Positions 24,986-50,582 of a DNA stretch of 64,000 nt are shown here, piece after piece. How positions within the stretch are numbered: position 1 is the first letter of the stretch; each line of letters starts with the position of its first letter. Location: contig NC_092396.1 in NCBI RefSeq assembly GCF_030028105.1, positions 14,033,820 to 14,097,819 of the forward strand. Reading direction: 5' to 3'. The notes below the pieces were generated by a model, which saw only the letters and a list, made by a program, of their open reading frames with translations, was not told the DNA's origin and did no database searches. The position numbers and the translations under genes are program-made. This DNA is from Mobula birostris (lineage: Eukaryota).

Positions 24986-26129
24986 ATTATCCTCTTATGG
25001 ACTCAACTTTTGTTAAATTAGATTTTCTGTGGCAAGTAATTGAAGTTCCCCTGAAAGTCCATTGTATTCCTCCTCATTAATTCTGCTAGTTACAATCTCA
25101 ATATATTTGTCAGATATAATTTCTCTTTCATTAATCCTTGTTAATTCTGCTCAATCCTATCATTTTTTTCTAAATGTCCTCTAACTAGTCATCATATCTT
25201 GTGGATTTCTCAGTTTTCAGTCCCTAATATCTTCACTCCATTGTTCTACTTACATTAATTTCTTTAATTCACCTTTCTTTACAATTTTCAGGATGTTTTC
25301 TGAATCTTGTGTTGTAAAGACAGACAGAAAATATTTGTGTAATTTATCTGGCTTACTTTCCAATTAATGTAATTTCTTCTGTCTCATTCTGTTAGAGATT
25401 CACATTAACTTTTGCCAATCATTTTCTTGTACGACAGCCATTGAAATCTTTTAAAGTCTGTTTTTTATGTTTGTCACTAGCAACAGTAGACCAAAGGCAA
25501 ATGCCAAAAGAAATTGCAGAAACTGGGCATGTCTTATTTACAAGGCAAATGGAGGAACTGGCATCTGTGACACTGTTGCATTATAAGGGTAAATGGCTGA
25601 TCTTGCAAAGGTTCCACAAGTTGCAGTGGATTAGTAATGCAAAGAAGAATTGAATCTCTTTTGTTGATGCAGTTGTAAAGCCAGCTTTGGCAGAGTATCT
25701 AGCTTTACTCATACACTTCCAATTGAGGTTTATTTGGGCTCAGGTGTGTAGCAATGTTTCATTCATCTCAGTCCCTGGAGGCTGATGTGAACAGATGGAA
25801 GGTGGCAGATCAAAGGTGATACGTGCATTTCAGGCAAGTTTGGGCACGTATATTTGGCAAAGATTACATTTTCTCTGGATGTCTATGTGATTTAATAGTC
25901 ACATACTGAGGCCCTCTAGCGTCCCATTGGAAATAATAACTTGCATTGAAACAAGTGGTATGTAGAGTAAATGTGTGCATTGTACATAAGCTTTCACAGA
26001 TGATAATTTACATGAAAAGCATTAACAAATGCTTATGAAATTTCCTGGATAGACTGATATAATTCATTTTTTGCAGATTTTTAGGGCTTTGTTAACTGTA
26101 TCAATTTAATAGCAAACCATCAACCTAAG

Positions 26130-27311: not shown

Positions 27312-28787
27312 ATCTAATTCCTCATAATTTATCTTAGTGTCTGTTGATTTGATCAGCTACTATTTATAGACTTCCATTAAGGCCTAACCACATTCCTTTG
27401 CTTCAATCTATTTGTTCTTCCTGAGGGCACTGATCCACGTTGTAGTGCAGTTCTGACAGTACAGATTGCTTTGTGCACTCAATTAATTGACAAGGCCGCT
27501 TTAGTTGGCCTGTATTAATTGATTAGCTGTGACAGGACAGTCATCATACTCATACCCAATTCCGCATTCCCTATTATCCAGACAAATACACTTTCATTAA
27601 GGTTGTTGGGTTGAGATAAGGAGTTAGAGTCCCTGACATGGAGACAAACTAATAGATGATTACTACCACCCCAACTGAGCTCACTAAGAATCAGACCTGT
27701 AGTGTGCGGGACAAAAAACAGTGCTTGCTTCTGAGTGCAAACTAACAATTGAGGAAAAAATCCTTAATGTGGTTAACAGATGAGCTCTTTGTTTTCATAT
27801 GTTTCAGTGATTAAATCATTTTAATTTGTGTATGCTAAAGGAAGAGTGGCGAATACAGCTTTGGTCTTGATGTGCCGTGGATACATTCATCAACTGCATT
27901 TAACACATGTTAAGCTTTAGTTAGTCAGCTGAAAATAATTCAGTATGTTTGCATTATAATTAAATCATTAAGGACAATTGATTTACTTAACATTACCTTT
28001 GTTGAATATGTGGTACTACTGTATACAAGAACATGAGAGTACCAGCAAAGGATAGGAAAATTTGGGATGAAGATATTCTGTTTACGAACCTCCTTGTCAA
28101 TTTGAGCCTATGCATAGCCGAAGTGAGCTACTCAAATGCTTTTTGTTGGCACTGGGACTACCAGGGGGACCTACCAGTAAGAGTATTAGAGAAGGTTGAC
28201 CTTATCACATTGGTATTTGAAGCTCTGTTACCTGCTTTTTTCTGCCAGCTGAGTTAAGCTTAATATGTCAGCAGTTTAATGCACCTCTTGCTATTAGTAC
28301 ATTGATATGTGCCTAATATGAGTACATACCTTATTAAGGCTTTCTGAATTGATATGTGTCATGTTGACATGAATATTATTGTGCCTGTACTGGTGTATAT
28401 GGGAGAACAGTGATTTAGGTTGTTCTCCCACAGTTTCAATCAAACTGTTAATTTCTAAAATGTTAGATTTAAAGGACTTGAAAGATTAGTCAACAATATA
28501 GGAATCGATTGATCCATTAAACAAAGTAAGAGAAACAAAGACTACAGAATTTAACATAAAACTGAACAATTATATGGAGGGATTTTGAATCTTGAACTGA
28601 GTGTAGTATGAATTGTTGCACCAACAATATTTTTTAAACAATTATTAAGCTTCATTTAGGTAGCTGAATACAAATGCAATCAAAATTAATCAAAAACAGT
28701 TCTAGCAATTTATGATTGTGTTTATAAATGTATGTTTCTTTCGGTTGCAGGGTTCTTTACCCATCACTGGACCATCCTATATCCAAG

Positions 28788-28846
28788 ATGGCTCAGTCTT
28801 CCCCAGCAGATGAAGGTCCTACATTTGAACACCTCTGGAGTAGTTT
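28788..28846 (+). CDS. TP73: TAp73 exon 2, coding part (exon 28751-28846); transactivation domain MAQSSPADEGPTFEHLWSS(L)
   Basis: Matches vertebrate p73 N-terminus MAQS...TFEHLWSSL with the FxxLW motif; acceptor TTGCAG|G at 28750/28751; donor TT|GTAAGT at 28847; phase 2. Confidence 0.97.
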
Positions 28847-30979
28847 GTAAGTGTGCAATTGTTTTGTTTTTGTAATTATAAGATAGAATCAAAAACAGTA
28901 AAGCAGTGGTCCTTCTACACAATATTCATACTTATCTGCTGCAAAATCTTAGCCATCCTTGAAGATGCTTTTGATGGAAAGCATATTTAAGGACTTTAAA
29001 GAGGAAAAGAAAATTGAAAATGAACAGTGATTTGCAAGGATGGAGAGTCAAGAGTTGGTTTCTTCTGGAGAGGTGCACTGAGGACAGATTGAAAGGAAAA
29101 GGGTGCATACCTGGAGGGTAAAAACAGTTCAGAATTTACAAGTGGAACAAGAAAGGTTTGTTGGATGGTTAGCAGTTTGGTGAGGCTATGGTCAAGGGAG
29201 CAGGCATTGACCCTTATAGACAAGATGAACTCAGGGAGGCCTGTGTCCCAACAACACAATGGAAGCACCTTCCCCAGAAGGAGTGCAGCAGTTCAGGAAG
29301 GCAAATCACCATCACAATATCAATGATCATAATGCTGGTGATGGCCAGATTCTGACATTCAGCATGTGTATGAGAAACTAAGGAAGAAGAGGTAACTGAG
29401 GCAAGGAAACAACAGAGGCAGATGATCTCAGACTTAGTGACAGTAAGATAAATGAGCTCTTTGTACTAGTTGGGATAATGAGCTAGTGGGAGCTAGGGAG
29501 ATAAGAAAGTGGTTTGTGCTTGATAAAAGAACTAAGATTTAGGGATTATTTTGGAATGGTGAGCAGTTTGTGCAGGTAACATTAACTCTTTATGTTGTCT
29601 AGCTTGATCAAGCACTGAAAGCAGATGACCTGTTCAACCTATCTACCGAAGTTTACGTTGTTTGGAGTTAATAGAACAGGGTCAACGTTCTAGGTTCTGA
29701 TCAGTAATAGTTTTAATGTAAACTCAGCCATCAAAGGTGGAGGTGAGGATGTGGTGGTTGAGCAGATTTATGATTGAATATATTGTCTTGATGAATAAAG
29801 GACCAAAGGTCTAGCAGCGGAGGCTTAGAATTCCTGTTTGAAGTTTGCTTTCTACTGGTGGCTCAGTTGAGGTAGAGTTGTGAGACGGGAGACCAATATG
29901 GGTAGAGGTCAACTTAGGACTTTATTGTGATGAGACATTAGGAACAGTGAGAACAGATGGGGTTACAAAGTTGATAGAGGTGACCATAAATCTGGTAATT
30001 CTGGTGAGAAGGTGATGCGCTCAGACGCAGTGCCTCTCTGGGTCCAGCCAAAGGTATAATTGTTCGTCCTTTACGTCCTTTTCACGATCACAAGACACTG
30101 CTGGTTATCAAGGACGTTAAGTACTACAGGTCTATCCCACTAGCTGGATAGGGATGGAGCTAGAATTGTTGCGCACCAAATTCCCTGCTTTACCTAGGGA
30201 GGAAGGTATCAGCGGCACGTGGAAGCAGTGCAAGTCCAGTGGATCGGGATGGTTAACTTGGACGTTTTTGTTGTGATTGCAAGACCCTGTTAGACATGGG
30301 TAATGTAGAATACTGTGAGTCCGATTCACTGGTTTATTGGTGAAACCGATGGTGGGGGCACTGTGTGGCCTCGGTTGTGGCACAGACTAGGCCTCATCTA
30401 TGCTTTGGGATTGCCTGTTACGGCCACTGAGGAAGGAGGCATCAGAGCTAGCTGTGTGTCACTGGATTCTGTGCTGTGTGTCACTGGATTCCATGCTGTG
30501 TGTGACTGTGGTTCTATGTTTTGCACCTTGGCCCCAGAGGAACACTGTTTCATCTGGCTGTATTTGTGTGTATGGTTGAATGACAATTGAACTTGAACTT
30601 GAAATGTGAATTGGGTACCTACATGAAGAGAGAATTTGAGAATTGATTCAGTAACTTACTGTGGAAAAAATAAAGAAACCATGATTGGGGGATAGGCAGC
30701 TTTAGTTTAAAATAGCAGTAAAAATGAAAACTGTATCAGAGTTAGGGGAACAAATAGGGTGAGAGAGATATTAGAGGAGAAAGAGCGAAGGAAAGTGGCT
30801 ACTCGCCAAGGAGAGTGATTTACAATAAACAACCCCACAAGATGCTCACTACCTAGGCCCCATCTTCTTTAGTCAACTAGCTCCTTTCTGCTGGTTAGGA
30901 ATTGGTGATAATGTGTCTCAATAGTAATGGAACAAAATGAGACCTTTCACATGTCCATTATCTCTCCCTAATTCTACTA

Positions 30980-32145: not shown

Positions 32146-32284
32146 AGAACCAGACAGTACATACTTTGATATCCCACAAACCAACCTCTCCAGCAGCAAT
32201 GAGGCTGTGCCAAACTTGTCACAAAATCGAACTGAAGTTTGCATGGATGTGTTTCAGATGAGGGACATGAATGAATCTGTGATG
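32146..32284 (+). CDS. TP73: TAp73 exon 3: (L)EPDSTYFDIPQTNLSSSNEAVPNLSQNRTEVCMDVFQMRDMNESVM
   Basis: Matches p73 EPDSTYFDLPQ...MDVF...SVM; acceptor TTTCAG|A completes the TT|A Leu codon; donor ATG|GTGAGT at 32285; phase 2 to phase 0. Confidence 0.97.
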
Positions 32285-46715: not shown

Positions 46716-47727
46716 CTAGAGAATCATTAACATAAAAAGAATAGCAGTGTTGGTAGAGGTTTATAGTAGTCGTTTCCATAAAACAAGTATTAAATAATTT
46801 TAACAAGTTTAATCAAATTTAATCAAAATTAGTAAACCTATGATCCATCAGGCAGTATTTTATATTTTAAAAAAAGGATAATGTATGCATATACATTAAC
46901 TTTAGTTTGTTATAGACCACAGTGAAACTTTTATTCCAACAATAACAACATTTTTCACTTAATGGGTGCTAATAATATAGGTAAAAATCTTGCGAGAAAC
47001 TTCACAAAGTGCATAATTAGATGCTAGTTTACATTAAGCCAGAGAGGGAGACCGTAGGTCAGATTACCCAAGCTTTGTATAAGAGAAGGAGATTTAGAGA
47101 AGGAATTCAAAACTTCTGACCTGGGTACTTGAAGGCACAGCTGCTAATAACAGGCAATAGCCAGCAGGCCCAAAGTAGAAAAGTGCAGAAATCAAGTACA
47201 GTGGGGTGAGGCCATGGGAAGACTTTAGACAAGAGCATAAAACAAATCAAACCACCATGTTTATAGTCACGAGTATGGGCATGGTAGTTGATTGGCAATT
47301 GGTGCAAATTAGTATTCAAGCAACAAAGTTTGGAGGAATTTTGTTTTGTGGAGGCCAGCCAGTGGACTTTTGTAATTGTCAGGTCCGGATACATAGGCTT
47401 CCAGCCACCACTGAAAGGCAAGTGATATTATGGAAATGAAAGTATTGGGATTAGGATGTCAAGAGCTCAGGTAACATCTGCAGCTAGAGAATGATATTCA
47501 AGGTGAGGGTTGAACACAGTAGGTTCAGACTTTCCAATATCCAAATGGACTTGAAATGCAAGCTGAATTTCAGAATGTATAACCTAATTGGTGAATTTGG
47601 TAGTAGTTAAAATTGAATGTTTAAAAAAGGAAACATTAATAAGCACTGCAGGTAAACTATTCCCTTTTTAATTAATGAAGCCCCTCTGTAACCGCATATC
47701 TGAAATGGTATAGTCTCAAACATCGCT

Positions 47728-47747
47728 GGGCAAGTCTAGGCCTGCCT
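47728..47747 (+). promoter_or_regulatory. TP73: p53/p73 response element in the DeltaNp73 (P2) promoter
   Basis: GGGCAAGTCT AGGCCTGCCT: one perfect RRRCWWGYYY half-site plus one half-site with a single mismatch, zero spacer, ~310 bp upstream of the DeltaN ATG. Confidence 0.85.
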
Positions 47748-48059
47748 TGTGGTTAATTGAATAGTCATGAGGAATAGAGGGGAGGTCCAAGTTTTGTTGT
47801 TAGATGCAGTCAAGAGAGAGGGTTGAGAAAGAGGCAGAGAAAAAGGAAGATAGGAAGAGATGGAAAAGCAACAGAAGCTGTCCCAATGTGTTTCACCGTT
47901 CCATTGTCCCCAAGACTTGGTTAGTAAATGTGAGTGAGGTGTGCTATAGATCCTGCACTATGTTTGTGTAAGTCAGAGAAAAAGATCCCTCCTCTCTCTC
48001 CCTGATGACACCTGAGGTGGGAACAATCCCAGCTGCACATACAATCCGGGAATACTAAA

Positions 48060-48098
48060 ATGCTTTACATAAGTGACGCAGCCCAGCACTGCACCACG
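48060..48098 (+). CDS. TP73: DeltaNp73 alternative first exon (exon 3') coding part, MLYISDAAQHCTT
   Basis: 13 codons matching human DeltaNp73 MLYVGDPARHLAT in length and motif; AAAATG start; donor ACG|GTAGGT at 48099; phase 0, the same as TA exon 3. Confidence 0.95.
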
Positions 48099-50582
48099 GT
48101 AGGTGGCTATAAATTTACCTCTTTTGAAATTCCTTTTATTTTTGAAACATATATTTATGTTGAGATCTGTACCTACTTGCTGATTTGTAGAAAAATAGTT
48201 TGATGCTGTTTTCAATTTCATTTAGCTTTGTTGCTAGGTAATTAGATAACTCCATGACTGAGATTAATGTTATTATTTTGACCTATTTTGTCTCCAATCT
48301 CAGGGATTTTTTTTTTAGTAATCCTGGTCCAAGTCACGCAGCCTTCTAGTGCTGCTATGTCCTTGACTCAAATTCCTATTGGATTCCGTCAAATCTGCTG
48401 GGCTAACTTTGGGGATCATATAATAGATATGTTCCAATTTGTTTAAAAAGACTAGTTCCTATGTGGTTTTTCTGTCATTTTATCATTGTCTATGCTTTAC
48501 CAGCACTGCTTTTGTTTATCACTGTTCTGACCTACCTGCTTGTGTTCCTTCAAAGTTGCAAATTCAGCACTGCGTACACTGCCTCCTTCCTTGCATTCAA
48601 CTTCATTGAAATCAGGACCTATCATTTCTTCTCCTGTAACTTGCTTTTGTTGGACCTTGAAAACTCAATCCTTTGCTTGCCTAAAGATTTCTTCCTTCAG
48701 ATTTTCAAATTATCCCCAAAGAGCATTTAATGAATGGATTGGCTCTGATGTCATAATATTTGAACAAAATCTTGATACTCTTATATTCTTCAATATATGA
48801 AATCACTGTCTAATGAGCTTGGTTAATAGCATCTACAAGTACAACTATATAAGCTATACAAACCTGTATTTCCTATATAAGTTAATTTTAATAAATAGAT
48901 TTAACCACAAGCCCAGTAGAATTTTTTAAAAGTTTCAAAGGCATGTTTCTCCAACCATACATTTTCTAAGAAGTGGTATGTAGATATATTTTTCTGGCAC
49001 TAGGAACTAAAATTACTAGTACTAGAAATTTAACCAAAGACTAATTAGCTGAAAATAAAGAACAATTCTAAAGGAGAGAAAACTGAGGGTTTCAACCCGA
49101 ACCATTGACAATTCATTTTTTCCCTACAGATGTTGCTTCTCCCACTGAGCTCCCCCAGCAGATTGTTTGTTGCTCTGGACAAAATTTTCTTCAGTTTTAC
49201 TAGTTCTATTTTTCTTGCCTGTCTTGAATCACCTAAAAAGAATCAATGCAGCCTGTCTACAAGAGAACATTAGATACCACGTATGATAAATATTGAACTT
49301 AGTGAATGTCTTTTTCCAGTTTAATTTCATCCTAGTGTAAGGTCATAATAAGTTAGAAGTTGGATATGTTTCGATAAACTCAAAACATGCTGCATACTAC
49401 TTGTAGTCAGACATTATTGTCCTTTAGGGGATGCTTTGTTCTGCATCACATGCAAATGACGCATTGGGGACTATTCTGAATTAGTGACACAATGGCATGT
49501 AATCCTAGAAACCACAGATGGAAGTTGATCAGCCTATAATGCACATTAGTGCTAGCTCTTCAAATGACTCATAATACGCAACTCAAATTCCATTTTCATG
49601 CCTTTCTCTCGTGTCCTTTTTTATTCTCTTTTCTGGCTAATTAGCATGTTCCTTGATACATACTTTACTCAAAAGCCCTTTCACTCTGTGTTCTAATGAC
49701 TCTTGGACACCTTCAGAAAGCAAGTTGGATGAATATAGAGACCTTCATGTGCCTCACCTGCAAACGTTTTACAGGGGGTAGAGGACTATGCGGAATAGTC
49801 AAGCCTGAGAATAGGGAGAAGAAGCTTAGGGAAGGAGAAATAAGAAATCTAGTTAATTGTTCATGTGAAACCTTGGAAGAATGGGGAAAAAAGTTTGACT
49901 GAGAAATAGTTTAAATTTATGTCAGGGTAACTTAGTGCCAATGGGATTGATAAATTTTTGAAAGCATCCTTATTGCTTTGGGTTTTTAAAAAATGTTTAT
50001 TTTAGTGCTTTGTCAAACTGGTAGATCCTGATATTCTTATATGACTGCCTCTTGATCTTGAGGATAATTCATCAGTCCATTACACCCAGCAGTGAACTTG
50101 CTGTCACAAGGGCTGCGAGTTAGTGATGGTTCTTTAACAACTGTAGCCTGATTTTCCATCCTTGCTCCCAATAGGATCAAATAGTAGTATGGGAGTGCCA
50201 AGTTACCTGTTACTGTTTTTTAAATCAGCCTGGTTCACTACATTGAATCTCACATAAGTCTCATTTATAGCCTCTGATCTCTGAGCACCTAACCTATGAG
50301 CTAAGAAATGAATCTTTTATCAAAAACTTTCAGAATCCCTGTAGATAAAGAAAGGCAGTTGAACTACTGTTTTGTATGGTCAGCATAAATATTTATCAAA
50401 ACTCATGAAATTTTATTTTTTCTCCATAACCCCATTCTTCCTTAAATGTATTGACAGTTGGAGATGACTGTATATGAGCATGAGACAACGTGGGTAACTA
50501 ACCAATAAAGTTCATTGAAATCAGTACCAGAAACCTTAGTGTTATTGGATGAGGAAGTTTATTTCTGCTCTAGGTAACTTAT

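Follow-up and report, generated by a model that had tools for sequence, protein, structure and literature searches.

A putative p53-family response element upstream of an internal DeltaNp73-type first exon in TP73 of the ray Mobula birostris resembles the human P2 feedback element

For mammals, a loop leading from the TA forms to the DeltaN forms of p73 was described (PMC8227208, PMC3597522). The human P2 promoter of TP73 serves an internal first exon in intron 3, exon 3', which contributes 13 unique codons joined in frame to exon 4, and it contains a p53-family response element whose core is CCTG and which spans positions -76 to -57 (Table 2 of the review PMC6696488). A TATA box was predicted 25 nucleotides upstream of the human start (PMC2194062). 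Next to DeltaNp73, the first exon of DeltaNp63 and the start of lamprey p73 also begin with MLY and also lack the TA domain (PMC4743058 and its supplement), so that an MLY-type first exon predates jawed vertebrates, given its presence in lamprey p73. Human p53 elements were reported to show, on average, no higher conservation than the background, even when only mammals are compared, and to turn over fast (PMC1934401), so that a likeness between a ray and the human element would be unusual.

Here, a stretch of 64 kb of DNA from Mobula birostris (the window) was analysed, which carries on its forward strand the features collected in Table 1. The peptides encoded by exons 2 and 3 bear out the original assignment of the locus to TP73 of a cartilaginous fish, the exon 3 peptide being 93-96% identical to p73 of skate, catshark and chimaera, compared to about 60% for bony fish (seven matches among eight candidates). 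By protein identity, the source is a ray closest to the stingrays and mantas. No exon 4 is found within the 64-kb window, as it lies past the window end, and the 13-codon exon is located 3' of the TA exons 2 and 3, i.e., in intron 3 of TP73, as in human. The distance from exon 3 to P2 amounts to about 15.5 kb in the window compared to 7.6 kb in human. An identity as exon 3' of DeltaNp63 was considered and rejected, as the flanking exons and the splice junction are those of TP73 and the peptide is unlike the p63 starts given in the supplement of PMC4743058; the DeltaNp63 and lamprey p73 starts differ from the p73-type peptide of the window in their other residues and have a longer unique part.

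Table 1. Features of the TP73 locus in the window and p73 proteins sharing its alternative starts
Feature	Position in the window or identifiers	Strand	Remark
TP73 exon 2	28751..28847	+	TA start codon at 28788; 33/33 residues identical to ray TP73 models
TP73 exon 3 (TA), phase-0 donor	32146..32284	+	46/46 residues identical to Mobula birostris p73
Third half-site, degraded, in head-to-tail order with the element and lacking the G of the core	47718..47727	+	role doubtful
Putative p53-family response element GGGCAAGTCTAGGCCTGCCT, two directly adjacent half-sites, the second with a CCTG core	47728..47747	+	
Weak A-rich stretch GAATAGAG	47772..47779	+	about -32 to -25 by transferred human numbering (inferred); not a canonical TATA box
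Exon 3' (DeltaN first exon), extent covered by spliced contig	47827..48098	+	X19 47827-48098, X20 47877-48098
Exon 3' coding part, 13 codons, MLYISDAAQHCTT	48060..48098	+	ATG at 48060
Splice donor GTAGGT, phase 0	48099..48104	+	contigs of two runs have loose ends at 48098
RefSeq models with the 13/13 start	XP_067873257.1, XP_048470976.1, XP_072442376.1, XP_072334142.1, XP_072888272.1, XP_051895153.1		
p73 proteins with the 10-residue upstream exon	P0025, P0029, P0031, P0041, P0147, P0182, P0186, P0188, P0223 and others		
p73 proteins with the MYYVKKK-type start	P0189, P0192, P0205, P0207, P0213, P0215, P0220		

The 13-codon exon and its phase-0 donor were found as originally predicted (Table 1). 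To follow the proposed junction from position 48098 to exon 4, four of the 24 sequencing runs listed were compared with the window (X16, X18, X19 and X20). The runs X19 (organism B) and X20 (organism J) come from related species and from two studies, not from the organism of the window itself; their status as RNA is a guess, X20 being flagged as probably DNA. None of the listed runs is recorded as RNA, which was counted neither for nor against. The X19 contig shows one difference from the window and the X20 contig 17 differences and a four-base gap, and both leave the window exactly at 48098, continuing for 29-30 letters whose manual translation corresponds to the beginning of exon 4 in shark and ray proteins. 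The DNA runs X16 and X18 read through 48098 into the intron. The junction is thus seen in contigs of two relatives, RefSeq models agree with it, and exon 3' is spliced in frame to exon 4, as a join precisely at a GT donor is hard to explain otherwise. A DeltaN protein model contains the DNA-binding, tetramer and SAM domains and no TA domain.

Moreover, the exon is shared with other vertebrates. An identical 13-residue start followed by exon 4 occurs in six of 31 p73 proteins from elasmobranchs (one singleton and the 30 that were listed among the 72 members of two clusters), namely in Heterodontus, Rhincodon, Chiloscyllium, Scyliorhinus, Hemitrygon and Pristis, and it is absent from all four Callorhinchus proteins examined. 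Among 35 new matches, 29 bird p73 proteins agree with the exon 3' peptide in 10 of 13 residues, and among 47 further proteins gar and lungfish agree in nine of 13 each and one teleost in five of 13. The human exon 3' peptide, as printed in PMC2194062, is identical in six of the 12 residues after the methionine. The 13 codons are homologous to the vertebrate DeltaNp73 starts. That the exon would easily be missed by annotation is contradicted by the six RefSeq shark and ray models that already start with it; these are automatic "tumor protein p73 isoform X" models, which are not named DeltaNp73 and are silent on the promoter element. Exon 3' itself is ordinary and already contained in automatic annotations.

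Upstream of this exon, the original prediction had placed a zero-spacer element at a distance of about 310 bp, and the element is indeed found there, 313 bases separating its end from the ATG. Its half-sites have the cores CAAG and the non-consensus CCTG, and the first half-site is a perfect consensus. As a bare match to the p53 consensus the element is not above chance: with up to two mismatches, the window contains three matches compared to 2.65 expected, and 52 of 100 shuffled sequences reach three. It is the only one of the three with a single mismatch, for which about 0.1 matches are expected per window. Another of these sites, a zero-spacer p53-family-like sequence with two mismatches at 25832-25851, about 2.9 kb upstream of exon 2, is likewise at chance level. 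A second copy of the element region is not present within the window, so that it is not an in-window repeat; about 11.6 kb of the window consist of repeats with other in-window copies (about 55 intervals), none of which overlaps 47300-48400.

What stands above chance, as judged from sequence, is the likeness to the human site rather than the match to the consensus. The human site given in the original prediction agrees exactly with Table 2 of PMC6696488, and a scan of both strands of the window with this 20-mer confirmed the claimed 16/20 identity and the shared non-consensus CCTG core, returning a single 16/20 match at 47728. No other match exceeded 14/20, a value reached twice, once by this very site when read backwards. 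Under a base-composition model, 0.006 matches of this quality are expected per window and about 2.5e-5 within the 500 bases preceding the ATG. If a consensus site with a single mismatch is taken for granted, a 16/20 likeness has a probability of 0.003 under a null that treats the consensus letters as equally likely. This value errs on the optimistic side, since G-rich flanks are preferred in real sites; the FUCA1 site in Table 2 of PMC6696488 also begins with GGGCAAG. The human element likewise has no spacer and carries CAAG and then CCTG, and the four of 20 bases that differ in the ray are all in the flanks, the ray first half-site fitting the consensus fully. The human element was studied functionally, whereas the ray element is known from its sequence. 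Taking one human 20-mer and the rough position together, the ray element is likely the ortholog of the human -76 to -57 element of DeltaNp73.

The human start lies about 57 bases after the element, and in X19 the contig begins 80 bases downstream of the ray element, i.e., at a similar distance; this 5' end at 47827 has no loose end listed, and contig starts cannot show a transcription start. Transfer of the human numbering puts +1 near 47804, with which the start of the X19 contig is compatible, and the P2 start would accordingly be expected near 47.80-47.83 kb. By this comparison, the position of the ray element appears compatible with that of the human one. Local constraint was assessed with the two DNA runs. 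X16, for which all 25 changed places are listed, differs within the element at a single position, 47738 (A>G, still a purine), and X18 shares this change (13 of its 36 changed places are listed). This only listed element change in two relatives keeps the consensus, and one change in 20 bases is as expected from the flank rate. In X16, the proximal promoter shows one change in 123 positions compared to 19 in 619 flanking positions (Fisher p=0.13), and promoter and exon together six in 401 compared to the same flank (p=0.08), neither being significant. Two scans of metagenome contigs for host DNA of other vertebrates, with the element plus a downstream motif and with the exon pattern, returned no loci.

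These observations bear on a convergent or accidental likeness, in which a consensus-like site arose independently near the ray promoter or persists as a non-functional by-product of slow sequence change. The chance-level number of consensus matches in the window, the fast turnover of p53 elements even among mammals (PMC1934401), the lack of significant local constraint and the fact that no intermediate species was seen would agree with such an origin. However, the 16/20 identity includes the same off-consensus base, the placement is similar, and the single change listed for the two relatives leaves the consensus intact, which makes convergence or accident very unlikely.

Instead, the locus is probably best explained as the internal first exon of ray TP73 together with an inherited counterpart of the human feedback element, enabling p73 to induce DeltaNp73. 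By analogy to mammals, a TAp73 tetramer, more than p53, would bind the two half-sites and activate P2, and the DeltaNp73 produced would compete for the sites, form mixed complexes and damp TAp73 as well as p53. The CCTG core is likely under selection because it would bias the site towards p73. The shared 13-codon exon and the 16/20 site suggest that such a self-regulating switch likely goes back to the origin of jawed vertebrates; if true, the circuit is no younger than the split between cartilaginous and bony fish. Of the mammalian background on which the original prediction relied, the induction of DeltaNp73 by TAp73 stands while that by p53 is disputed, and the dominant-negative role agrees with mammalian work describing DeltaNp73 as an inhibitor, although according to PMC8316356 it is not purely dominant-negative.

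The dispute matters for the question of which family member would act on the ray element. In a p53-driven stress loop on the same orthologous site, p53 would induce DeltaNp73, which in turn restrains p53, comparable to the loop of p53 and MDM2. Induction of P2 by p53 was reported by Grob 2001, who found P2 induced by both p53 and TAp73 (as told in PMC2194062), and by Kartasheva 2002 (second-hand in PMC2194062 and PMC8227208), and the perfect consensus of the first ray half-site would suit p53. However, Nakagawa 2002 saw induction by TAp73 only and no activity of p53 (as told in PMC2194062), and Table 2 of PMC6696488 gives the P2 element as positive for p73 and negative for p53 and p63. In B-cell lines, knock-down of p53 left DeltaNp73 unchanged while knock-down of p73 altered it (PMC3597522). 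Finally, in the supplement of the Fischer census (PMC5511239), which is resolved by gene and not by isoform, the p53 expression score of TP73 is 0 on a scale from -20 to 20 and the gene is called a direct p53 target in four of 16 sets, compared to a score of 19 and 16 of 16 sets for MDM2. A mainly p53-driven loop is therefore unlikely. Since the P2 element is positive for p73 only in Table 2 and the p53 score of TP73 is 0, autoregulation by p73 is better supported than a p53 loop, and by analogy a p73-biased autoregulatory site is favoured also for the ray.

This preference can be taken further. It is conceivable, and we propose it tentatively, that the element is p73-selective and that, CCTG included, it was kept base for base since the common ancestor of shark and human, the mismatch being a code for a drive by p73 and not by p53. 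A developmental p73 circuit, i.e., that of Cajal-Retzius and olfactory neurons, would then date to the origin of jawed vertebrates, and the input of p53, i.e., that of human cell lines, would be weak or a later add-on.

Alternatively, the orthologous site might serve a positive or maintenance autoregulation in development and not a brake, in which p73 forms including DeltaNp73 itself keep P2 switched on in Tp73-positive neurons, for example Cajal-Retzius cells. The 13 residues of exon 3' were reported to matter for activation (PMC8316356), and they are identical in all six shark and ray proteins starting with them. Moreover, the marginal zone was reported to express only DeltaNp73 (PMC9091270), the skate has Tp73-positive pallial neurons, for which the isoform is not resolved (PMC12393536), and lamprey p73 is without a TA domain (PMC4743058). 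However, cells with DeltaNp73 only may drive P2 through other factors, no direct sign of self-activation was found and mammalian work casts DeltaNp73 as an inhibitor. Taken as the main function, such maintenance is improbable, yet it is compatible with the p73-driven feedback preferred here and the two are not mutually exclusive.

The circuit is already known in mammals and the exon is already in RefSeq, so that the element extends a known system and does not define a new one. Among the matches listed by a full-text search, no report of the element in cartilaginous fish or of its deep conservation was found; most subscription journals lie outside this search, and alignments may be shown in the primary P2 papers, in Lane 2011 on the p53 family of the elephant shark, or in their supplements. 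The matching passages of PMC5007497, on zebrafish p53 targets, PMC5543598 and PMC7564633 contain nothing on this element. If the assignment is true, it dates the regulatory link, and not just the protein, to the jawed-vertebrate ancestor, and the pair of ray and human elements offers a clean handle on the old dispute whether p53 or only p73 drives P2.

Some further observations concern the ends of the transcripts and proteins. The DeltaN 5' leader contains five upstream ATGs between 47860 and 48058 (at 47860, 47886, 47928, 47960 and 48005), the last of which opens 17 codons whose stop (48056-48058) is separated from the main ATG by a single base. In X20, the differences listed (13 of 17) abolish the ATGs at 47928 and 47960 and keep those at 47886 and 48005. 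A translational control by these upstream ATGs is possible. The leader also includes a pyrimidine-rich stretch ending in AG at 47898-47914, 184 bases before the donor, which is a weak candidate for a splice acceptor; the human DeltaN' form includes 198 bases of exon 3' (PMC8227208).

At the TA end, the reading frame of exon 2 is open upstream of the usual TA start (28751-28787). In 20 of the 231 p73 proteins compared, a near-identical coding exon of 10 residues is spliced onto exon 2 (from ray, birds, turtle, frog, coelacanth, gar, teleosts and a marsupial), and this upstream exon was not found in the window. It represents a deeply conserved N-terminal extension of TAp73 and resembles the long TA form known for p63. 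Another short alternative start, seven residues long and of the MYYVKKK type, has its best match in the window at four of seven residues with no donor, i.e., it was not found there. Seven of the 231 proteins possess it (those of gar, lungfish, teleosts and a wallaby), six of them with exon 4 following immediately, and it may perhaps correspond to the I3a form named in PMC8316356.
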